Source of the DNA: a bacterium
GTDB taxonomy: Bacteria; Zhuqueibacterota; Zhuqueibacteria; Oceanimicrobiales; Oceanimicrobiaceae
Assembly: GCA_046757025.1 (NCBI GenBank)
Contig: JBHHXN010000154.1
Location: forward strand, 1-12,316
DNA length: 12,316 nt
Reading direction: 5' to 3'
Shown here: positions 319-11,127 of the stretch, piece after piece
Layout of the letters: the number at the start of each line of letters is the position of its first letter
Numbering within the stretch: the first letter of the stretch is position 1
Made by a program: the position numbers and the translations under genes
Notes under the pieces: model-generated
The model's database searches: none
What the model was told of the DNA's origin: nothing
The model's input: only the letters and a program-made list of their open reading frames with translations

Positions 319-1845
319 ATGGCGTATATTCCTGGTTTTGAATTCGATCTATTCATCAGCTACGCTCACGTCGACAATCTGGCAGATGACGACGGAGCCA
401 GGGGCTGGGTCGAACAATTTTGTAATCATTTAAACATCAAACTCACCAAGCGGTTTGGACGAGAAGGTCTGGTGAACATCTGGTGGGATTCAGCGTTGGA
501 CGGCAGCCAGCTTTTCGATAAAACCATTCAGGATAAAATAAAAGGCGCGGCTTTGTTCCTGTCGCTGCACTCAGTGGGTTATCGAGAATCAGATTATTGT
601 CAAAACGAGCTCAAATGGTTTTTTCAGAAAGCAAACCAGGAATCTTTCCGTTTGAAAATAGGCGACCGATATCGAATAATCAATGTGTTGCTGAACAACA
701 TTCACCATGACCAGTGGCCGGCTGAATACAGCCGTACCAGCGGTTTCCCCTTTCACGACGCAAAAAATGAAACGGACTTCGGCGAGCCAACCCAACCCGG
801 CAGTCAAGAATTTAAACAGCAGCTGCGCGCTTTGGTGGACGCCATTCATAAATTCATAGAATCTTTTCGAGAGCAGGCCGCCTCTGCATCATCGACTGCA
901 CAAACTGAAGCTCCCTCAGAGCCGGACGAGGCTTTTCGCGTTTTTTTAGCCGACACTTCGGACATGCGCAGAAAAACTTTTGAGCGCACTAAAAATGAAT
1001 TAGAAGCCCAGGGAGTCAAAGTGATCTGCGGAGTACCGCCGCCGTATGAAGCCGAGACACATGCGCAAACCGTCAGCGAAGAAATCAAAAACGCCCAGCT
1101 CGCCGTTCATCTTCTCGACATTTACCCTGGCCGTCCCATAGAGGGAGAAACAACCAAAAGCTATCCACAAAAACAGGTAGAGCTGGGAATCGAATACGCA
1201 AAATCGCAATTTATCTGGGTGCCCGATTCTTTCAAACTGGAAAATATCGAAGAGGACGAGCCGTACAAAAATTTTGTTACCTCACTGGAAAACGAACGTA
1301 CGGAAAAGGCGCGGTTTACTTTTGTGCAAAGCCGTCCGGACAATCTGACCCACGACATTCTGGCAAAAATCGAAGAAATTAAATTGCTAAAACAAAAACA
1401 GCAAGACCCCACCGATTCCACGGTTTTTTTAGACACTCATGAAGTGGATGAGCTTTTTTCCATTGACTTGTATAAATATTTGCGAGAGCACAAAATACGC
1501 ACCTATTTGAATCCCCAGGAAGAAGAACCCAAAAAAAATATGCACGAGTTTGAAGAGCGCTTGGAAAAAGTCAATTCACTGTTGATCATCTACGGAGAAG
1601 TCGTGAAAGACTGGGTTATCGAACGGCTGCATGCGGCGCTGGAGCTCATCAATTCGAAAAATTATCCAGTGACTTCCTACGGCATCTATCTGGCGCCTCC
1701 TAAAAAAGAAATTTCTGAGTTTCAGTTTTATGAGAAAATGCACCACGTTAAAATTTTTGACAACAGCAATGCGAAGACGTTCAATCCAAAACTTCTGGAC
1801 AACTTTCTGCAGAGTTTGTCGGCAGGAGCGGGAGGGGCAGCTTGA
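319..1845 (+). CDS. TIR-domain protein: N-terminal TIR (TIR_2-like), central DUF4062/TIR-like Rossmannoid domain, C-terminal degenerate TIR-like domain (508 aa)
   Basis: TIR box motifs FDLFISYAHVD, IWWD..LDG, and S..Y..SDYCQNELKWF (catalytic-position Glu at 607-609). Two further beta-alpha units begin RVFLAD (937) and TVFLDTHEVD (1420). ATG 319 is preferred over TTG 280 because the recognisable domain starts right after it (MAYIPGFEFDLFISY). Confidence 0.88.
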   Translation: MAYIPGFEFDLFISYAHVDNLADDDGARGWVEQFCNHLNIKLTKRFGREGLVNIWWDSALDGSQLFDKTIQDKIKGAALFLSLHSVGYRESDYCQNELKWFFQKANQESFRLKIGDRYRIINVLLNNIHHDQWPAEYSRTSGFPFHDAKNETDFGEPTQPGSQEFKQQLRALVDAIHKFIESFREQAASASSTAQTEAPSEPDEAFRVFLADTSDMRRKTFERTKNELEAQGVKVICGVPPPYEAETHAQTVSEEIKNAQLAVHLLDIYPGRPIEGETTKSYPQKQVELGIEYAKSQFIWVPDSFKLENIEEDEPYKNFVTSLENERTEKARFTFVQSRPDNLTHDILAKIEEIKLLKQKQQDPTDSTVFLDTHEVDELFSIDLYKYLREHKIRTYLNPQEEEPKKNMHEFEERLEKVNSLLIIYGEVVKDWVIERLHAALELINSKNYPVTSYGIYLAPPKKEISEFQFYEKMHHVKIFDNSNAKTFNPKLLDNFLQSLSAGAGGAA

Positions 1846-4334
1846 TGGAGAATCCTTTTGTGGGGCTGCGGCCGTTTCAAGCCAATGAAAGCCTGCTCTT
1901 TTTCGGCCGGCGTGAGCAAACCATGGAATTGCTGCAAAGACTGCACGAAACGCGTTTTCTCGCCGTGGTCGGCAGCTCTGGCAGCGGCAAATCTTCGCTC
2001 ATCCGAGCGGGATTGATTCCCAAATTAAAAGCGGGCTTTCTGGTGGACGAACGCGATAAGTGGCATTTTCTCAGTGTGATGCACCCGGGCGACAAACCGC
2101 TGCACAATCTCATTTCCGCCTTTTCCAACTTGTTAGCCGACGAGAAAAATCCGGCTTCGGTTTCCCGACTTACCGAAGAAGTTAAAATTCGCGGTGTGCA
2201 GGCCATTGTTCAAAAATTAGCGCTGTTGTTTGAAAATTCAAACAGCAATTCAAACAGCAATTTACTGTTGCTGGTAGACCAATTTGAAGAAATTTTTCGC
2301 ATCGGTTTAAAATCCGACCAGCCGGAAGTGCGGGAAGAAGCGGCTGATTTTGTAGGCATCATGCTGGGTTTGGCCAAACAGCGTAATCTGCCCATTTACG
2401 TAGTCATGACCATGCGCTCGGACTATCTCGGTGACTGCGACATTTTTTACGGCCTGCCGGAAGCCATGAATCAGAGTCAATATCTGGTGCCACGTCTCAC
2501 ACGGCAGCAGCGCCGGGAGGCCATCCAAGGACCGATCAGGTTATTTGGCCAGCAAATCACCCCGCGCTTGTTAGACAAGCTGCTGAACGCTGTAGGGGAT
2601 GAATCGGATCAATTGCCGGTGCTGCAGCACGTTCTCTTGCGCTCCTGGGAAAACTGGCAGCTAAATGGCAACGGGCCAATCGACCTTGAAAATTACCGCG
2701 CCGTGGGCACTATCGAAAACGCCCTTTCCAATCACGCGGACGAAGCTCTGCAAGGTATGAACGAACAGGAACTCAAATTAACCCGACAAATTTTTCAAGC
2801 CCTGACCGACACCGATAACAAGCAGCGGCGCATTCGGCGCCCGGCCCGCCTGAGCGAGCTGCAGGCCATCACCGGCGACAGTCTGGAAAACATCCACAAC
2901 ATCATCTCGCGATTTTGCTCTGGCAACAAATCGTTCCTGGTGTTATCCAGCCAGGATGCCTCCGGCGACGCTCTCGTGGACATCTCGCACGAAAGTTTGA
3001 TCCGCCAATGGACGACTTTGCGCAAATGGGTGGATGAGGAAGTCGATTCCGCACAAAAATATCAAGACCTCGCCAAACGCGCCGAAAAGCACCGCTATGG
3101 CGAAGCGGGATTGCTGCGCGATCCGGAACTGCAGAAAGCGCTGGAGTGGCAGCATCGACAAAATCCCACAAAAGCCTGGGCCAAACGCTACAATTACGAC
3201 TTTGAACTCACTACAAAATTTCTCAAATCGAGTATGTGGCGGGTGCGAACCATCATGTCGGTGGGATTGATACTTTTCACTCTGGCTGGATTTTTCACCC
3301 TGCAAAATGATAATACCCTCAACCATACATTTGAAAGATTGATGTTTAAAATGCTCGATCCGATTTCGGTTTCTCCAGAACTGGTGGTCGTGGAAATCGA
3401 TGCCGAATCACAGTTTTCTTTAGATCTGGAGCAAGAAACCGACCGCAAATTGTGGCGTCAGTATCATGACGACCTCATCGATTCGCTTTCCGTGCATGGG
3501 GCCAAAGCTATCGCGTTTGACATCTGTTTTTATGACACCTCGGAATACGATGCCGACCTGGCACGGGCCATCGACAACGCCAAAAAACGCGGCACCGCGG
3601 TGGTCTTCGGAGTGGGGTGCGACAGAAATGGCCCGACTACTACGCCATTGCTGACAAAAGCTTCTACCGGCATCGGCTGGACCCTGATCAAATTTGTCGA
3701 GGATAACATCAAATTCCAGGTGTTTGGCGAAAATGATACCACGTCTTTTGCCCTGCAAGTTTTCAAGCCGGGCAGCAGCAGTTCAAAATCCTTTGACATC
3801 CAACTCGATGACCAGGACTTTGCTGATATCCGTTTTATTGCCGCCAAAGACAGCTTCCCGGCGGTTCCTTATACCGATATTGTCGATGACGACGTGGTTT
3901 GGACGCTCTTTAAAAACAAACTGGTGCTGGTGGGATTTACTTTAGGCGATCTGGATTATTTCGATGCCCTTGAGATGCACGGGGTGTATATTCAGGCCAA
4001 TGCGGTGAACACCTTGCTCTCTGAGCCGAAATTGCGAACAGCCAGCATCAACCTGCAAAGAGCCGTGGTGATGGTGGTCACGCTCCTGGCATTGCTCATC
4101 TTTTTGAAAATCCGCCTACAACTAAAATGGTCAACTCCGCTCACCGCACTTTTCGTCACGGCTTTTATTAGTGCCGCTGTTTTACTATTTAATGTTAAAT
4201 TGATTTTACTGCCCATCGCGGTACCGTTATTTATGCTCATTTACACTTCTCAATTGATCAGTTTGCTCGCTTACGGAAAGCTATTACCGGGAATGACCAC
4301 TAAAAAGAGGACGAATCAAGGAGAAAATAAATAA
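1845..4334 (+). CDS. nSTAND1-family P-loop NTPase fused to TM helix, CHASE2 sensor domain and 3 TM helices (829 aa)
   Basis: NPFVGLRPF...FFGRR start, Walker A GSSGSGKSS (1971-1997), Walker B LLLLVDQFEE, TMRSDYL, LPVLQHVL and VDISHESLIRQW..LRKW are typical nSTAND1 motifs. A TM segment (IMSVGLILFTLAGFFTL) is followed by CHASE2 motifs LVVVEID, GAKAIAFDICF, D..LARAI, FKNKLVLVG and HGVYIQANAVNTLL, then three hydrophobic helices. ATG 1845 overlaps the upstream TGA, with GGAGG at 1831-1835. Confidence 0.88.
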   Translation: MENPFVGLRPFQANESLLFFGRREQTMELLQRLHETRFLAVVGSSGSGKSSLIRAGLIPKLKAGFLVDERDKWHFLSVMHPGDKPLHNLISAFSNLLADEKNPASVSRLTEEVKIRGVQAIVQKLALLFENSNSNSNSNLLLLVDQFEEIFRIGLKSDQPEVREEAADFVGIMLGLAKQRNLPIYVVMTMRSDYLGDCDIFYGLPEAMNQSQYLVPRLTRQQRREAIQGPIRLFGQQITPRLLDKLLNAVGDESDQLPVLQHVLLRSWENWQLNGNGPIDLENYRAVGTIENALSNHADEALQGMNEQELKLTRQIFQALTDTDNKQRRIRRPARLSELQAITGDSLENIHNIISRFCSGNKSFLVLSSQDASGDALVDISHESLIRQWTTLRKWVDEEVDSAQKYQDLAKRAEKHRYGEAGLLRDPELQKALEWQHRQNPTKAWAKRYNYDFELTTKFLKSSMWRVRTIMSVGLILFTLAGFFTLQNDNTLNHTFERLMFKMLDPISVSPELVVVEIDAESQFSLDLEQETDRKLWRQYHDDLIDSLSVHGAKAIAFDICFYDTSEYDADLARAIDNAKKRGTAVVFGVGCDRNGPTTTPLLTKASTGIGWTLIKFVEDNIKFQVFGENDTTSFALQVFKPGSSSSKSFDIQLDDQDFADIRFIAAKDSFPAVPYTDIVDDDVVWTLFKNKLVLVGFTLGDLDYFDALEMHGVYIQANAVNTLLSEPKLRTASINLQRAVVMVVTLLALLIFLKIRLQLKWSTPLTALFVTAFISAAVLLFNVKLILLPIAVPLFMLIYTSQLISLLAYGKLLPGMTTKKRTNQGENK
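2235..2262 (+). repeat. In-frame 12-bp tandem duplication (AATTCAAACAGC x2 + AATT) encoding NSNSNSNSN
   Basis: Exact copies at 2235-2246 and 2247-2258, read directly from the sequence. Confidence 0.9.
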
Positions 4335-4407
4335 ATGTAACAATTTCTAAATTATCACTCACTAATGGTAGTTTGTGTGTACTTTTCAAATATAGATAAA
4401 TTGTAGA

Positions 4408-4426
4408 TCCACGAGAAAATCGTGGA
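4408..4426. promoter_or_regulatory. Perfect 7-bp inverted repeat TCCACGA-N5-TCGTGGA; possible terminator hairpin or regulator site after the TIR-STAND operon
   Basis: The inverted repeat is seen directly about 75 bp after the stop at 4334. There is no U-tract, so its function is uncertain. Confidence 0.35.
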
Positions 4427-4761
4427 CATTCACCACTTTATTAACAAGTTCACTTTCAGGCCGCACACTTAAATCATTTTCGATTTTCACTGGGGGATCT
4501 TTATTGAAGACCGTGATTCTTTCGAAGCTCGGTCCGCAACGCCTCCCCGCGAACTTGATTTATCAATTCATCTTTCATTTTTAAGTTACACACAAATTTT
4601 GTATTAGTGATGATTAGTGTAATCAATCACAAAGTAAACGGCCAATAAACCGTATCCTTTACTAATTTGTGACATCGCGTATCTATTTTCAAACACATCT
4701 TTACCGAGCTCCATTTTAAACAGCGGCAATTAAAAACCACATCTAGGCAGGGAGAACCGGC

Positions 4762-7700
4762 ATGAAAGTGAAACTCAATCGAAGACGTATTCCATTTTTT
4801 CTAACCATCCTTTTTTTGGCAGTAAGCCAGCTTGCTTTTTCACAAAAGATTCCCGGCACCATGAAAAAGAATAGAACGAAGCTTGCACAAACTGCTGCCT
4901 CGTTGCAACCTTTCTTTCGGGTCACGGGTAGAGTGTCGGTATCGGTGGACGGCGTCGGATTTCTCGGCTCAGACAGTTTGATTCAAGTTAACAAACCACC
5001 CGGTGCCACCGTTCGCAAAGCATTTTTAGCGGCGGCAAGCACTGGCACCAGCGAACGCAAATTAAATGATGGCGACGTCGAAATAAATGGTTTTCCAGTT
5101 GAATGGGACTCCTTGCAAACAACCGTCAACAGTATATTCTCATTCAATCACCTGGCAGATGTTACCGCCATCGTTGAAGGTATCGTGGATAGCGCGTCGG
5201 CCGGTCGCATCGATTTAAGCATCACCGAAAAAATCTCAGAGGATATCGACGGCGAAATTCTGGTCGTGGTATTCGACGATGAAAACCTGCTGGAAGATAA
5301 TACCGTGATTTTATTTTTCGGAGCGCAGGATTTTGCTCCAGACGAGTTTGAAATCCAACTCGACAATCCGCTGGATTTCAGCAAACCTGAGCTGAGCTTA
5401 GAAATGGGCCTGGGCATTTCATTCAGCTTTCAAAAAGGCATCCCATCCACAATGGATCAATTCAGTACGGTCTCCGTAAACGGCAGTCTGTTAACCAGGC
5501 GCGCCGGCGGTCAGGACGACGGAAAAGGCGATAATGGCGCCCTGTTGACCGTGGGCGGTCTAGGCGATTGCGACGTCAATCCCCTTCCAAATTCCCAATC
5601 CAATCCCTCTTTTAGAGTAGATGATGAGCTCTACAATCTTAAACCGTTCGTTTCAAATGGTGAATCCGTTATCAGGGTGCAGACCATCAATCCCTCTCGT
5701 GACGACAACATTTTCTTTGCTTGGTTTTTTTTACATTTTCCCGAAGACGCGGGGGAACAAATTCTTCTGCAACCGGCGACGGCGGCAAATCCCCTGGGCG
5801 CGGAGCACACCGTCACCGCCACTGTCATCGATAAAAACGGACACGTCATCGATTGCGGAATCGTAAACATAACCGTTGTTTCCGGTCCAAATGCCGGACA
5901 GTCTGTCACCCAGGAATTAAACGAAAATGAACCAGCTTTTTTGGCTTACACCGGTCAAAAAGCCGGTACCGACAGCATTGCCGGTTATTTTGTCAACAGC
6001 CGGGGAGACACTGTTCGAGCCAAAATGGTGGCCAAAACCTGGGTGCGCGCTCCCGTGTGCGAAGTCATCATCGACTCACCGCCAAACGATGCCTTCATCT
6101 GCAAAAACAGTGTGCTCGTGACCGGCACGGTGACAGTGACGGACGGACTGCCGCCGTTCAATCAAATTTGCACCGTCAACGGCATACCAGTCTCACTGGT
6201 GGATGGGGCTTTTTCCGTCACTGTCCCGCTTATGCCCGGCGCCAACTCCATCGAAGCGGTTTGTGTGATCACCGATAGTCTCGGCAGCAGCACGCAATGC
6301 CAGGATACCATCACGGTGAAACGCAGTCCAGAATTGAACTGCTCGGTGGAAATCATTTCACCGGTTGACAGTACCACCGTCCGAACGGATAGCATCGAGG
6401 TTTCTGGTGTGATAAAAATCAATCAGGGCAGCCCGCCGTTTACTATCGCGGTGAAAGTTAACGGCTTTGCGGCCAGTCGGACAGACAGTTTGTTTCAAGT
6501 CACCGTGCCGTTAGAGCTCGGATGGAATACCCTCATCGCCAAATCCGTGGTTATCGATAGCTGCGGGAACCAGACCCTCTGCACAGACACCGTCATGGTA
6601 CGGCGAGAGCCCGGCGGAAAGGACACTTTACTTTGCAGCGTAACTATCACCGCGCCTGCTGACAACCAGCGTGTGTGTCAAGACAGCGTGCAAGTGGACG
6701 GCGTCATTCGAATCAATGGAACGGATCCGCCCTTTGCCATCGAATGCGAGGTCAACGGCGTACCGGCTGTGGTCTCCGACACCACGTTTCAAGCGATGGT
6801 TCCTTTGCAATTTAACAATAATTTGATAATCGCCACCTGCACAATCAAAGATGCAGTTGGTAGAACCGCGGTTTGCAAAGACTCCATTCAAGTTTCGCGC
6901 TTGATGCCACCGCAATGCGACGTCAAAATCGTTTCACCGCAAGACAGCACTGTGGTCACCGCAGATAGTATCGAGATCAGGGTGTTGACCAACATCGAGC
7001 AGGGTGCGCCGCCATTGGTGGTTGACTGTCAGGTGAACGGTGTGGTCGCCACGAAAATCGACTCCTTTTTTATCGCCACCGTGCCGTTGGAAATTGGCGA
7101 AAATACCATCACCGCAACCTCAACCGTTCTCGACAGTTGCGGTTTTCAATCAACTTGCAGCGACACCATCACCGTGTTTCGAGAAAGAGAACCCCTTGCC
7201 TGCCAGATCGAAATTACCACGCCAGAGGAGCAAGCGGTGGTTTGCGACAGCCTCCTGCCAGTCGCGGGCGTTGTGAAGATTATCAACGGCACGCCCCCCT
7301 TCGCCATCGAGTGCGAAATCAACAGTAACCTTGCCAGCGTGACGGACAACAATTTTAACGCCATCGTGCCGCTGACCTCGGGCGAAAACCAGATCCGCAT
7401 CAAATGCACGGTCACGGATCAGCTCGGTGCCCAGACAGTCTGTTTGGACACCGTGCAGGTTATTTTTGATGACATTCCGCCCACCTGCACATTTACCGAC
7501 GCCGGCGCGTTTGTTACCGGCACGTTCACCGATCTGGAAAGCGGTTTATTCGCCATCGAAGCGCCGCGGCTGCGGAACGCCACCCTCACTGTCGATCCGT
7601 TCACGCCCGGGCAGCAAACCGTGAGTTTTCGCATCGATGCCATCGATCCCAGCAAACCCAAAGGATTTGTTCTGGACGGCGTGGATGTTTGTGGCAACGT

Positions 7701-8355
7701 GTTCAGATGCGATCCGATTTTGTTCACCCTTTCCACCGACCAGCAAAATCGTCAGATGGAGTTGACATTTCCAGCTTTTGAGCGCTACCTCCGTATCTCT
7801 AATCACGGTCTGACGGAAATTCAAGCCACGCTCAATGGGCTCGCTTTCCTGCTTTTAACCTCGCCTTCCAAAGTCGAACAGGAGCTAAATTCGTATCTCT
7901 TGCCCCAGAATGGCGCCGTCACCATGGATCTGCAAAACCATTTGCAAAGCGGTGAAAATCATCTAAAACTCGCTTTTGCCGGTGGCGCGGGTTCAAAGGC
8001 GGATTTGATGCTCATCGACCAGGCAAACAACGTGGATTACGTTCTGGAAATCCGCACCTTGCCATCGGAATTTCATCTGGCGCAAAATTTCCCCAATCCG
8101 TTTAATCCCACAACCAAAATTCGATTTGAAATACCCGAAAGATTGACGCAAGGCACGCGTGTTCGATTGCAAATTTTCAATTTGTTGGGAGAGCGGCTGG
8201 TGACGCTGGTGGATGAGATCAAATACCCGGGCCTGTACACGGTGGAATGGGACGCCCGCGATGCCAACCAGGAGGCGGTGGCCACAGGAATTTATATCTA
8301 TCGCATGGTCGCGGAGGATTTTCAGGCCACCCGCCGGTTGATATTGTTAAAATAG
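4762..8355 (+). CDS. Large secreted/surface protein: signal peptide, uncharacterised beta-rich N-terminal domain, Big_1/invasin-like Ig domain, five Cys-rich Ig-like repeats, C-terminal FlgD-Ig/T9SS type A sorting-like tail (1197 aa)
   Basis: GGAG RBS at 4751-4754; signal peptide ending LAFS|Q; 'HTVTATVIDKNG...V.ITVVSGPNAG...YTG..AGTDSI' is Big_1-like; repeats have the pattern C.V.I.SP...PPF....VNG....F...VPL..G.N.I...D..G....C.DTI.V.R; tail FHLAQNFPNPFNPTTKIRFEIP...IFNLLGE.L.TL...WDARD....VATGIYIYRM...TRRLILLK. Confidence 0.85.
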   Translation: MKVKLNRRRIPFFLTILFLAVSQLAFSQKIPGTMKKNRTKLAQTAASLQPFFRVTGRVSVSVDGVGFLGSDSLIQVNKPPGATVRKAFLAAASTGTSERKLNDGDVEINGFPVEWDSLQTTVNSIFSFNHLADVTAIVEGIVDSASAGRIDLSITEKISEDIDGEILVVVFDDENLLEDNTVILFFGAQDFAPDEFEIQLDNPLDFSKPELSLEMGLGISFSFQKGIPSTMDQFSTVSVNGSLLTRRAGGQDDGKGDNGALLTVGGLGDCDVNPLPNSQSNPSFRVDDELYNLKPFVSNGESVIRVQTINPSRDDNIFFAWFFLHFPEDAGEQILLQPATAANPLGAEHTVTATVIDKNGHVIDCGIVNITVVSGPNAGQSVTQELNENEPAFLAYTGQKAGTDSIAGYFVNSRGDTVRAKMVAKTWVRAPVCEVIIDSPPNDAFICKNSVLVTGTVTVTDGLPPFNQICTVNGIPVSLVDGAFSVTVPLMPGANSIEAVCVITDSLGSSTQCQDTITVKRSPELNCSVEIISPVDSTTVRTDSIEVSGVIKINQGSPPFTIAVKVNGFAASRTDSLFQVTVPLELGWNTLIAKSVVIDSCGNQTLCTDTVMVRREPGGKDTLLCSVTITAPADNQRVCQDSVQVDGVIRINGTDPPFAIECEVNGVPAVVSDTTFQAMVPLQFNNNLIIATCTIKDAVGRTAVCKDSIQVSRLMPPQCDVKIVSPQDSTVVTADSIEIRVLTNIEQGAPPLVVDCQVNGVVATKIDSFFIATVPLEIGENTITATSTVLDSCGFQSTCSDTITVFREREPLACQIEITTPEEQAVVCDSLLPVAGVVKIINGTPPFAIECEINSNLASVTDNNFNAIVPLTSGENQIRIKCTVTDQLGAQTVCLDTVQVIFDDIPPTCTFTDAGAFVTGTFTDLESGLFAIEAPRLRNATLTVDPFTPGQQTVSFRIDAIDPSKPKGFVLDGVDVCGNVFRCDPILFTLSTDQQNRQMELTFPAFERYLRISNHGLTEIQATLNGLAFLLLTSPSKVEQELNSYLLPQNGAVTMDLQNHLQSGENHLKLAFAGGAGSKADLMLIDQANNVDYVLEIRTLPSEFHLAQNFPNPFNPTTKIRFEIPERLTQGTRVRLQIFNLLGERLVTLVDEIKYPGLYTVEWDARDANQEAVATGIYIYRMVAEDFQATRRLILLK
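6058..7470 (+). repeat. Five tandem ~95-aa Ig-like protein repeats, diverged at DNA level
   Basis: Repeat-initial Cys codons at 6058, 6340, 6634, 6916 and 7201, with conserved PPF/PPL, VNG, VPL and terminal C-x-D-[TS] motifs. Confidence 0.9.
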
Positions 8356-8509: not shown

Positions 8510-10339
8510 TCATCGCCGACGTTCCGCCGCATTTACATTTTCTCTAATGAAAATACGCTTTGGTGTGCGATTATTCTCCTCATCAATCTCCGCTACTGTT
8601 TCGTCCACATCCGCCTCAACCAGAATATTTTTCCAACCAGCCAAACCAGTGGGAATGGTGATTCGCAGAGAATCTCGCAGGAGGCCTTCAAATTGCAAAT
8701 CCTGAGTATGGATAGCGCTGCTTTTCGCTAAGAAGATGGGAATCACGCCGATGGTGTCCGCAGAAGAGGTGATGGAGAGCTGTTCGCGGTAGGTCTCCAT
8801 GACGGTGTTGCGGCCGATATTTTTCACTTCCCAGCTCACCCAGATTTCCTCACCCGCAAAAGCCGAATCCGGCGCAGAGACGTTCACGATCACCAGATCT
8901 TTTTCCGTGAAAATGTCGATAGGCTGTGTTGCAAGGTTATTATTTTCATCCTGTTCGGGGACTCTGTCATCCGCATCCACCTGTATGATCAGGAAATACG
9001 CACCCGGTGTCAGTGTGTCCGGAAAAGGGACCTCTGCAGAAGCGTCATGCGTTTGCCCAGTCGCTAACGGCGACGTGTGCTCAAATTGCTCGAGCAACAG
9101 GGCATTGGAAACGGATTCCTTGGCGCCGAGCCAGATTCGGTCAATAAAATTCTCCGAAGTGGATCGAGTTCCCTGATTCTGCAGGCGCCAATCGATGACC
9201 ACCGTTTCACCCACACGAATGGAATCCGGCGCCTGCAATTTCTGTACCACCAGATCGGACCGTTGTGGTGGTTCGATCGAAATCATCCGCGAACCCTGAT
9301 TGTTGGTCGTGTCTTGTTCCAAAACCGAATTCTCCACATTGGTTTTGACCAAAAGGTAGTGTGGTCCCGGAACCAACCCTTCCGGCAACGCCACTTTCAG
9401 GGTCACCGAGCTGGACAGGCTCGATGGCAAACCCTGCGGATGCACAAATCGAGCGAGTCCTCTGGCGCCGTTGAACGAATCCCTGTCGTTGATCCAGAGT
9501 GAATCGGTAAAACTCCCTGAGATCTCTTTGGCGCTGGCATTTTTAACTTGCCAACTGATAGTCAGAGAATCGCTTAGCTGCAACGAGGGCGGAGCGTCAA
9601 TTTGTAAAAGCTGCAGGTCGAAAATGGTTTCTGCGGCTTTTTTGACTTCATTGCTGGCGGCGAACAAGCCGGTTGAATCAAACACAAAAATTTTGTAGAA
9701 ATAATCGATTTCCGGCAAAATAGAGTCGTCCAGAAATTCGGTGTCGCTGTTCAAACTGGATGCAAACATCAGGTCGGAATTGAAATCGACGCCAGCCTGC
9801 TCACTGCGAAACAAGCGGTACGCAGCGAAATCTGTATCGTGGTTCGAAGTCCAGGATAAAGTCACGGAAGTGCGCGTTGCGGCTTTGATGGCCAGCTCAA
9901 TTGCTGAGGGCTTTTTCGATTGCAGCTCAATATTGACTTCGAAACCGTCGTTCAGGGTGTTCACGGTATCGGCGCCGCAATAGGTAATCTGGCCGGTTTC
10001 GTTAAAGGCATTTGCAAAAAAGATGCGGTTGCGACCCTGGCTCACTTCAACCGTGCCGGTCGCAATGGAATCGGCGAGGGTCAGCTCCTTGGTGATCTTC
10101 TCGAAATTTTCAGCTTCATCCAGAGCGGTTACGTCCAAAGTCACTCTGGTAATCGCAGCAAAGGTCGCTTTTTTAGGATGTTGCAGGCTCGCTGGTATTT
10201 CGATTTCCAGATTCACCAGCACTTTGCTTCCCGAATCTGTGGGATTGCCCGAAAAACATGAAGCAAAAAATGATGACCACAGCGCTGCGAAAACTGCACT
10301 ACCAGCCGCCCGCAGCAGGCGTTTATGATAACATCTCAT
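8510..10339 (-). CDS. Lipoprotein with N-terminal beta-sandwich, fibronectin type III domain and three CARDB-like Ig domains (609 aa)
   Basis: Basic n-region plus lipobox FFAS|C; FN3 motifs VTLSWT..DFAAYRLFRS...YFYKIFVFD..G..AASN; three units DL.....AP.S...G....I.W.V.N.G ending EQDTTNN / EQDENNN / EIDEENN. Confidence 0.82.
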   Translation of the reverse strand: MRCYHKRLLRAAGSAVFAALWSSFFASCFSGNPTDSGSKVLVNLEIEIPASLQHPKKATFAAITRVTLDVTALDEAENFEKITKELTLADSIATGTVEVSQGRNRIFFANAFNETGQITYCGADTVNTLNDGFEVNIELQSKKPSAIELAIKAATRTSVTLSWTSNHDTDFAAYRLFRSEQAGVDFNSDLMFASSLNSDTEFLDDSILPEIDYFYKIFVFDSTGLFAASNEVKKAAETIFDLQLLQIDAPPSLQLSDSLTISWQVKNASAKEISGSFTDSLWINDRDSFNGARGLARFVHPQGLPSSLSSSVTLKVALPEGLVPGPHYLLVKTNVENSVLEQDTTNNQGSRMISIEPPQRSDLVVQKLQAPDSIRVGETVVIDWRLQNQGTRSTSENFIDRIWLGAKESVSNALLLEQFEHTSPLATGQTHDASAEVPFPDTLTPGAYFLIIQVDADDRVPEQDENNNLATQPIDIFTEKDLVIVNVSAPDSAFAGEEIWVSWEVKNIGRNTVMETYREQLSITSSADTIGVIPIFLAKSSAIHTQDLQFEGLLRDSLRITIPTGLAGWKNILVEADVDETVAEIDEENNRTPKRIFIRENVNAAERRR

Positions 10340-10353
10340 GATTTTGATTGAAT

Positions 10354-11127
10354 TTAATTTTCCTCGGGTAACTTGATTTTAACGGTTCCAGTAACCGTTT
10401 TATTGGGGCGGTCGATTATCAACGGCGAAGTGAGCGCGATGACAGGTGGAATCAGGCAGACCCAGCAAAAACCGCCATCCAGTGGATTGGTCCATATTTT
10501 CATATTTGAAACAATCGAGGCAAAATAAGTCGGGTCGGGATTAAACGCCGGTACCGAGGTGCCGCTGACAAAAGCCGCGGTATTAGCGCCCACCAAAATC
10601 GTACTATCAGAGGCCGTAAATTTAACCGTCCCATTGATAACCAAAAGTTCAGTGGTATCCTTTTCCGGGAAATAGCGCATCAACAATTCTGTGCCAGGCA
10701 CGCCAGCCGAAGTGGTATTCGTTTCGATATAATATTCACCAGCGCCGGCCCGCTTTCTTTTATTCATGAAAATCTCGCCTTTTTCCAATTTAATTTTGTT
10801 ATTGACAAGGATGGTGATCGTGGTATTTTCGTTGATTTTCACATATCGATCGTTGCCGAATTTTAATTTCACGCTCACATCTTTTTTTGTGATCACCTGG
10901 TCGTCTTTAATAAGTTTAACTTTTTTCTTTAAGAGAAATTCCTGTGGATTCAATCCACTCCGTAAAACCTTACCGTGTTCAAAAGTAGGCTTTTTCAATG
11001 TTTTATTTTTATTATTTTTAAAAACATTGACTTTTAAAATCTCACCAACCACAGGTTGTTGGCACCATCCCGCTGTTGAGAAAGTATGGAGAAAAAATAC
11101 CAAACCAATTAAGTGCAATTTATTCAT
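10354..11127 (-). CDS. Exported FecR-domain protein with C-terminal hydrophobic segment (257 aa)
   Basis: ATG 11127 is preceded by AAAGGT and gives a signal peptide MNKLHLIGLVFFLHTFSTAGWC-QQ, so it is preferred over the ORF-track start at 11196. FecR motifs: DDQVIT...VKLKFGND..VKINENT, IKLEKGEIF, IETNTTSAGVPGTEL, TELLVINGTVKF. The 14-bp gap to the lipoprotein gene implies an operon. Confidence 0.8.
   Translation of the reverse strand: MNKLHLIGLVFFLHTFSTAGWCQQPVVGEILKVNVFKNNKNKTLKKPTFEHGKVLRSGLNPQEFLLKKKVKLIKDDQVITKKDVSVKLKFGNDRYVKINENTTITILVNNKIKLEKGEIFMNKRKRAGAGEYYIETNTTSAGVPGTELLMRYFPEKDTTELLVINGTVKFTASDSTILVGANTAAFVSGTSVPAFNPDPTYFASIVSNMKIWTNPLDGGFCWVCLIPPVIALTSPLIIDRPNKTVTGTVKIKLPEEN

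Follow-up and report, generated by a model that had tools for sequence, protein, structure and literature searches.

The systems closest to the locus described here include two kinds. In the first, CHASE2 receptors occur together with envelope proteins: CHASE2 adenylate cyclases cluster with a FecR-domain protein in Campylobacterota (PMC9239204), CHASE2 kinases share operons with LysM-FecR proteins (PMC5192318), and the CHASE2 cyclases CyaD1, CyaD2 and CyaK of S. meliloti, together with NsrA, receive a protein signal via an outer-membrane barrel (PMC13001267, PMC7529298). The second comprises pairs of a TIR gene and an nSTAND1 gene catalogued by Kaur, Iyer, Burroughs and Aravind in 2021 (PMC8195603). 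In supplement file 1 of that work 'nSTAND1+TM', where TM is a transmembrane helix, occurs 461 times, about twice per row, and Figure 2-source data 1 gives the protein RQW03303.1 as 'TIR+DrHyd -> nSTAND1+TM+CHASE2+TM+TM+TM', in one table row that the main text does not take up. Here we analyse a stretch of 12,316 nucleotides (the window; positions 1 to 12,316 of contig JBHHXN010000154.1, assembly GCA_046757025.1, from a bacterium of the phylum Zhuqueibacterota), in which gene 1845-4334 is a fusion of an NLR-like ATPase switch with a membrane-spanning CHASE2 sensor.

The protein clearly belongs to the nSTAND1+TM class. Its nSTAND1-TM-CHASE2-3TM arrangement is already catalogued in the 2021 supplementary table, and the fusion cannot be regarded as unrecorded, given that the homolog RQW03303.1 is listed there (PMC8195603). 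What is new is that the CHASE2 sensor end and two envelope genes, coding for a FecR-domain protein and a lipoprotein, associate with two different switch lineages; the four-gene block and its likely exchange between lineages are what set the locus apart. A wider interpretation is put forward tentatively, namely that a whole trans-envelope module (lipoprotein, FecR protein and CHASE2 receptor) may have been captured by a bacterial NLR-like switch and exchanged as a block between TIR-STAND lineages, by which a cyclic AMP-type envelope pathway would be rewired to an NAD-cleaving immune output, or guarded by its own decoy copy.

The fusion protein

The features of the locus are the following (position, strand, description; aa, amino acids; K/R, lysine or arginine; pLDDT, predicted local distance difference test).

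319..1845, plus strand: TIR partner gene, 508 aa; of its three alpha/beta domains in tandem, the foremost is a TIR domain with the conserved Cys-x-x-Glu (Pfam TIR_2, E 6e-10; AlphaFold pLDDT 80)
1845..4334, plus strand: nSTAND1-TM-CHASE2-3TM gene, 829 aa, single open frame, with a full-length homolog at 38% identity
1854..3092, plus strand: nSTAND1 NTPase module, aa 4-416 (Pfam E 1.4e-95), motifs intact, without an N-terminal effector
3093..3248, plus strand: helical linker, ending at the likely swap point (about aa 450-470, from the identity crossover) between STAND chassis and CHASE2 cassette
3249..3305, plus strand: TM1, aa 469-487, predicted to run in-to-out (hydropathy; four K/R before, one after)
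3294..4094, plus strand: CHASE2 domain, aa 484-750, predicted extracytoplasmic, diverged (Pfam E 4.8e-23)
4047..4334, plus strand: TM2-TM4 (aa 735-810), basic cytoplasmic tail and stop, without an output domain (AlphaFold model, K/R distribution)
8510..10339, minus strand: predicted lipoprotein with a hydrophobic leader before Cys28, CARDB repeats (Pfam CARDB, E 1e-27) and a conserved N-terminal domain; the variable member of the block, with a homolog adjoining the gene for RQW03303.1 in genome G091
10354..11127, minus strand: predicted secreted FecR-domain protein, 257 aa, C-terminal hydrophobic stretch (Pfam FecR, E 6.8e-10), 14 bases upstream of the lipoprotein gene

The presence of nSTAND1 and CHASE2 modules in one protein, proposed in an earlier reading of this DNA from its sequence alone (the sequence-only reading), was confirmed by a profile check. 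The nSTAND1 profile (PF20703) scores 321.6 bits against a gathering score of 27.1, and the NTPase motifs are intact, with Walker A GSSGSGKS (aa 43), Walker B LLLLVDQFEE (aa 140), TMRSD, QLPVLQH and SHESLIR, so that profile and motifs both place the protein in nSTAND1. It is the only nSTAND1 match in its own genome and, as in 235 of 238 relatives, no N-terminal effector precedes the STAND. The CHASE2 profile (PF05226) reaches 82.5 bits against a cut-off of 26.3, with one TM helix before the domain and three after it, as in a CHASE2 receptor and as had been proposed. The TM helices were called from hydropathy, and TM2-TM4 also from an AlphaFold model of aa 458-829 (27 sequences; pLDDT 69.7, predicted template modelling score 0.65), in which helices span aa 735-755, 760-785 and 792-810. 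The hydropathy scan alone resolved two of the three helices after CHASE2 in the window protein and all three in RQW03303.1. A sequence search of the PDB gave no match, nor did Foldseek with the CHASE2 model at E<=0.001, and VIA-align with this model returned helical bundles only (Z<=7.5).

After TM4 the model has a low-confidence tail of about 19 aa. The expectation of a short tail with no output domain was correct in substance, its length having been put at about 15 aa. Indeed, a C-terminal cyclase, kinase, GGDEF or HD-GYP output is absent from the window protein and RQW03303.1 ends likewise, and a search past the stop (4100-4800) found no cyclase remnant. With no C-terminal output in either copy and the STAND switch intact, the proposal that the signal would pass to the N-terminal STAND is supported.

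Basic residues are placed ahead of TM1, in the loop between TM2 and TM3 and in the tail, a distribution that fits a predicted topology with the N-terminus inside, CHASE2 outside and the C-terminus inside. This would be the usual CHASE2 topology, because the CHASE2 cyclase of the same genome (L069) likewise has a TM helix before CHASE2, as ordinary CHASE2 cyclases do. The inverted CHASE2 topology suggested earlier was for this reason rejected: it is the position of the output that is inverted, having moved to the N-terminus, and the membrane topology is canonical. The view that spanning the membrane is special to the window protein was rejected as well, since a hydrophobic 19-mer within 110 aa past the STAND is found in 230 of 238 scorable close nSTAND1 relatives (nine more were too short or partial for scoring) and in 0 of 247 in a control stretch inside the STAND. 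The outer parts of these relatives vary between WD40, TPR, M15 peptidase, GH19, tectonin, TonB_C, SPOR and FGE. Many (P0004-P0014 and others) end in an M15 peptidase and others in GH19, tectonin or TonB_C, which are envelope enzymes or binders, and one (P0003) has two tandem nSTAND1 modules with several TM helices between them.

An assembly chimera or a truncated CHASE2 cyclase would give a similar picture, and is hardly credible here. The STAND-CHASE2 junction is bridged by single contigs in all four runs and the whole gene is spanned in three of them, with no joints listed; all four runs come from a single hydrothermal-vent study, and three are possibly the source DNA, which is all that could be said in favour of an artefact, as no positive support for it was found. 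Because the junction is bridged in every run, no cyclase remnant is present, and the independent homolog RQW03303.1 aligns over aa 3-815 with the same end, both forms of artefact were excluded; neither the lost C-terminal domain nor the chimeric junction considered in the sequence-only reading was found. Strain variation within the gene consists of a 12-base in-frame indel in an Asn-Ser run at 2235-2246 (two of four runs) and of two coding changes, at 2817 and 3898; at 3898 the window letter differs from three of the four runs.

A second copy and the probable history of the block

RQW03303.1 (P0126; 828 aa; NCBI label, candidate division KSB1 protein), found among the 50%-identity representatives, is 38% identical to the window protein over aa 3-815, has the same two Pfam domains and ends at the same helix. 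Its gene lies in genome G091, which shares the class of the window genome and belongs to another family. The gene order in G091 is TIR, STAND-CHASE2 and then, on the opposite strand, the CARDB lipoprotein and FecR-domain genes. The window holds the same four genes in the same convergent arrangement, with one secreted gene (4762-8355) intervening. Identities between the two loci are 23% for the TIR partner, 38% for STAND-CHASE2, 28% for FecR and 29-31% for the lipoprotein. At E<=1e-6 the window FecR is matched in 2 of 167 phylum genomes, which are its own and that with the gene beside RQW03303.1. At the other TIR-partner loci no profile match to FecR, the lipoprotein or CHASE2 was found (0 of 15) in the DNA examined, which covers 0.6-7.5 kb downstream for nine of them, the rest being cut by contig ends. 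'FecR' has 0 occurrences in supplement file 1 of Kaur et al., where the operon string of RQW03303.1 is given without FecR and lipoprotein (PMC8195603).

The two CHASE2 ends group together, with a Shimodaira-Hasegawa-like approximate likelihood ratio (SH-aLRT) of 98, and so do the two FecRs (SH-aLRT 90). The STAND domains, by contrast, reject a grouping of the window with RQW03303.1 in the approximately unbiased (AU) test (p 2e-76, 21 rows), and the TIR partners reject a grouping of the window with G091 (AU p 3e-53, 12 rows). The 21-row STAND tree was obtained after dropping 29 of 50 rows, and a quick tree of all 50 rows agrees with it. The window STAND shares 59-61% identity with relatives that end in a peptidase or TPR and 44% with that of RQW03303.1, whose own closest STAND relatives, at 57-59%, carry WD40 ends. 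Along the protein, the window and its three closest STAND relatives among those tested share 52-66% identity over aa 301-400 and 16-24% over aa 451-500, whereas identity with RQW03303.1 is held at 34-54% over aa 401-600, with the crossover at about aa 450-470. Given that the CHASE2 ends and the FecRs group, while the STAND domains and TIR partners fall in different subclades, a single block made up of CHASE2-3TM and the genes for the lipoprotein and FecR has likely passed, by exchange at TM1, from one TIR-STAND lineage to another. The discordant trees point to a route by which receptors could obtain new inputs, that is, exchange at TM1 of a block that includes downstream genes.

The fusion is rare near the window protein and probably recurs elsewhere. 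When its C-terminal half, the CHASE2 cassette, is compared with the 166 other genomes of the phylum there is one strong match (E 3e-41), the next being at 3e-8; CHASE2 overall is found in 146 of 167 phylum genomes. In the ESM Atlas, one cluster of 84 members (score 0.97) has both nSTAND1 and CHASE2 throughout, and those members for which a phylum is given are mostly Actinomycetota; clusters of 170 and 80 members combine AAA_35 and CHASE2 in Cyanobacteriota, in each case by family content irrespective of domain order. The search for this architecture suggested in the sequence-only reading thus gave a divided answer, with recurrence in RQW03303.1 and probable recurrence in the Atlas cluster, and the cassette in only 1 of 247 collected homologs. 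A pattern scan of genome contigs led to the known homolog RQW03303.1 (1 of 60 candidates), and among metagenome contigs none of 355 candidates had the cassette and none of 551 the FecR gene. In plasmid searches no record had both halves (0 of 162 at 80% cover), and a Nostoc CHASE2 protein met there was examined and is not a STAND fusion. Word-indexed searches with the whole protein and with the C-terminal half missed RQW03303.1, and blanks from them are weak.

This rarity, together with the loss of 22 of 45 conserved CHASE2 columns, would also be expected if the diverged CHASE2 had arisen passively by shuffling and, as a mere membrane anchor or decaying passenger, sensed nothing. Nonetheless, the reading frame is open over its full length in both copies, the two cassettes are 33% identical, the neighbouring pair of genes has been kept, and both families are present throughout the 84-member Atlas cluster, so that this explanation appears improbable.

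Other observations concern the neighbourhood of the block. The intervening gene (4762-8355, plus strand) codes for a secreted protein of 1197 aa with five Glucodextran_B repeats and a FlgD/T9SS-like tail; it has a 46% paralog on contig C182 and is absent at the matching place in G091. Positions 1-55 of the window are the end of a repeated element, probably a mobile-element end, with 61 short BLAST matches in the genome, many at contig ends, and a read depth of about 90-190 against 6-12 nearby. Two further loci (L115:201-3376 and L116:6095-8649) hold a multi-TM protein, a FecR-like protein with a hydrophobic helix and GTITVSW at its end, and a short lipoprotein that has a window-type N-terminal domain; their FecR-like and lipoprotein genes have no Pfam match, and both loci lie near contig ends.

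A proposed route from envelope signal to TIR output

The likely output is the TIR partner, a coupled upstream gene that the sequence-only reading had missed. Its stop overlaps the STAND start by one base (TGATG), and the two genes are translationally coupled. Profile and fold matches tie the TIR domain to plant and bacterial TIRs, the Foldseek matches of the partner including RUN1 and SPARTA TIR structures, and C94 and E97 are invariant in 12 of 12 aligned partners. E97 is presumably the catalytic-position glutamate of TIR NADases, and from this conserved residue we infer that the partner may cleave NAD+. The middle domain of the G091 partner matches DUF4062. TIR partners are present in 15 of 167 phylum genomes, with nSTAND1 downstream in 13 of 15 other loci, and all five of those scanned are nSTAND1-WD40. 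In one locus (L058:1826-4780, minus strand) the TIR partner is fused behind an N-terminal P-loop domain, in a protein of 984 aa, upstream of nSTAND1.

As for the input, the conserved downstream pair of FecR and lipoprotein genes, also missed earlier, suggests that the signal is relayed by proteins and is not a free small molecule. Among 60 further FecR-profile matches, at least 26 have a CHASE2 gene 2.3-3.6 kb downstream of them in the same orientation, as counted with the 150 of 372 CHASE2 matches that were listed. The four such loci opened, one in the window's own genome, all hold a FecR gene, a gene for a protein of 850-880 aa and a CHASE2 gene of about 700 aa. The operon of FecR/DUF7354 (225 aa), 850-880 aa protein and CHASE2 cyclase, seen on contig C13 of the same genome (L069:7184-12682) and in L112-L114, is widespread in the phylum. 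The 850-880 aa protein has no Pfam match and ends in a Phe/Tyr-rich strand; it is taken as an outer-membrane barrel. Another locus (L129:6581-11663) has three genes in a row, for a FecR-like protein, a CHASE2 protein of 394 aa that has no output, and a TPR-like protein of 718 aa. The window does not have the one-direction order of the FecR, 850-880 aa protein and CHASE2 operons, its FecR gene being convergent and paired with a lipoprotein gene; it would function in a similar way without being such an operon.

The best model, to which we give nearly an even chance, is an envelope relay in which FecR and the lipoprotein would act on CHASE2, CHASE2 on the STAND and the STAND on the TIR predicted NADase. 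The variable Ig-like repeats of the lipoprotein would meet an envelope cue, which the FecR protein would pass to CHASE2 in the way that gene order points to in the FecR-barrel-CHASE2-cyclase operons of the phylum. TM1 would then move or cluster, and the STAND would exchange nucleotide and oligomerise. The oligomer would gather the three-domain TIR partner, the first TIR of which would cleave NAD+, and the outcome would be death or arrest of the defence type. TM1 is the likely joint of the cassette, which probably moved as a block between the two TIR-STAND lineages.

The same protein could also sense directly, with CHASE2 binding a small extracytoplasmic molecule and tripping the STAND while the FecR and lipoprotein genes merely rode along. 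CHASE2 is termed a small-molecule receptor domain in PMC8195603, other cassettes of the family are plain ligand-binding domains (for instance, an nSTAND1 protein on a Streptomyces plasmid that has the annotation transporter substrate-binding), and the pair stands on the opposite strand at a spacing of 4 kb. We nonetheless consider direct sensing unlikely, given that the stimuli of CHASE2 were said in 2016 to be unknown (PMC5192318), that the pair accompanies both copies, which stand on different chassis, at 28-31% identity, and that FecR stands next to CHASE2 for at least 26 of 60 matches and even beside an output-less CHASE2 (L129).

The abundance of CHASE2 in the phylum bears on another explanation. 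Integrated domains of plant NLRs serve as decoys and, by analogy, the fused CHASE2 could be a bait copy of the near-universal CHASE2-cyclase pathway, with the STAND firing when a protein from a phage, predator or competitor acts against that pathway. This would agree with CHASE2 in 146 of 167 genomes, with the complete FecR-barrel-like-CHASE2-cyclase operon elsewhere in the same genome, with the divergence of the fused copy, and with sister cassettes that are other envelope domains (M15 peptidase, GH19, tectonin, TonB_C, SPOR). A decoy should, however, resemble the host target, and identity between the fused CHASE2 and that of the host cyclase is only about 25%; the fused one also comes with its own FecR. 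We know of no invader protein aimed at CHASE2, and the chances of a decoy or guard are judged to be low.

Similarly low is the probability given to a peaceful output, in which the wiring would be the same and the TIR would make a nucleotide messenger or act as a scaffold, replacing the cyclic AMP of the ancestral cyclase in envelope signalling outside defence. The input module derives from a signalling operon, the window has no defence-island neighbours, and STANDs are also regulatory switches (PMC8195603). The patchy spread (15 of 167), the rapid exchange of cassettes and the conserved catalytic-position Glu fit conflict systems instead, and no messenger receptor is encoded nearby.

Several observations weigh against the envelope relay. 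Only two members are open to examination, all trees are quick trees, and the sister grouping of the CHASE2 ends carries a long-branch warning. The fused CHASE2 keeps 23 of the 45 columns conserved among 25 other aligned CHASE2 proteins, about half being lost. The FecR and lipoprotein genes are on the opposite strand and, in the window, 4 kb off behind an unrelated secreted gene, and may have hitchhiked on a single transferred block. In two genomes (G151 and G157) the same lipoprotein domain adjoins a different membrane protein, together with a FecR-like gene whose tail is similar, and the lipoprotein domain occurs without FecR in eight other loci opened; overall it is present in 14 of 167 genomes, mostly without FecR. 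As for defence, no TIR and nSTAND1 pair with such activity was found in the literature consulted, and PADLOC gave weak partial matches only (a 20-aa P-loop and a weak ThsB-like match), with no match to a curated defence model.

If the envelope relay is correct, this would be a bacterial NLR with a ligand delivered by a protein relay outside the cytoplasm, and it would offer a built-in readout for the unproven FecR-CHASE2 interaction: loss of NAD+ or growth arrest would report FecR-to-CHASE2 signalling across the membrane and STAND switching from outside. The four-gene set joins two questions, those of the largely unknown CHASE2 stimuli and of how membrane-spanning nSTAND1-TIR pairs work. The coupling of FecR to CHASE2 rests on gene order, no direct test of it having been found in the literature, and membrane-spanning nSTAND1-TIR pairs are common, but no experimental test of them was found there. 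The literature search also found nothing joining CHASE2 with AAA_35, nor CHASE2 with a TIR domain and NADase.

Comparison with known systems

The window does not match the curated defence models for the characterised antiviral STANDs, Avs and bNACHT (PADLOC). With TIR NADases it shares, in the partner protein, the TIR fold and a putative catalytic-position glutamate.

Fusions with an N-terminal effector and a C-terminal CHASE2 are in print as EACC2-caspase-CHASE2 and TIR-TM-CHASE2 (PMC8195603) and as metacaspase-CHASE2 (PMC2853523), and a predicted periplasmic sensor has been described on a NACHT protein (10.1101/2023.09.22.558884). The N-terminal effector-CHASE2 fusions likewise have the output N-terminal to CHASE2, which is a known theme in predicted conflict systems; the window instead has a STAND switch and a separate TIR partner in place of a fused protease or TIR. 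The Atlas clusters of AAA_35 with CHASE2 may be of the same kind, depending on their domain order.

In the TIR(+DrHyd) -> nSTAND1+TM+X pairs (PMC8195603) the effector is likewise on a separate overlapping gene, a TM helix follows the STAND, and the C-terminus is variable (WD40, TPR, peptidase, GH19). The window agrees with them in having an adjacent upstream TIR gene with further alpha/beta domains (the DrHyd label aside), a TM helix past the STAND and a variable C-terminus. Its cassette differs in that it crosses the membrane four times, comes from a signalling receptor and has envelope partners. RQW03303.1 is like the window protein in architecture and in its upstream TIR gene, at 38% identity, and unlike it in standing on another STAND and TIR subclade.

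With the CHASE2 adenylate cyclases that have FecR or outer-membrane partners, the window protein shares the TM-CHASE2-3TM arrangement beside a FecR-domain gene. It differs from them in carrying no C-terminal catalytic output, the predicted output being STAND-TIR, and from the cyclase operons of the phylum in having a lipoprotein in the place of the barrel-like protein.

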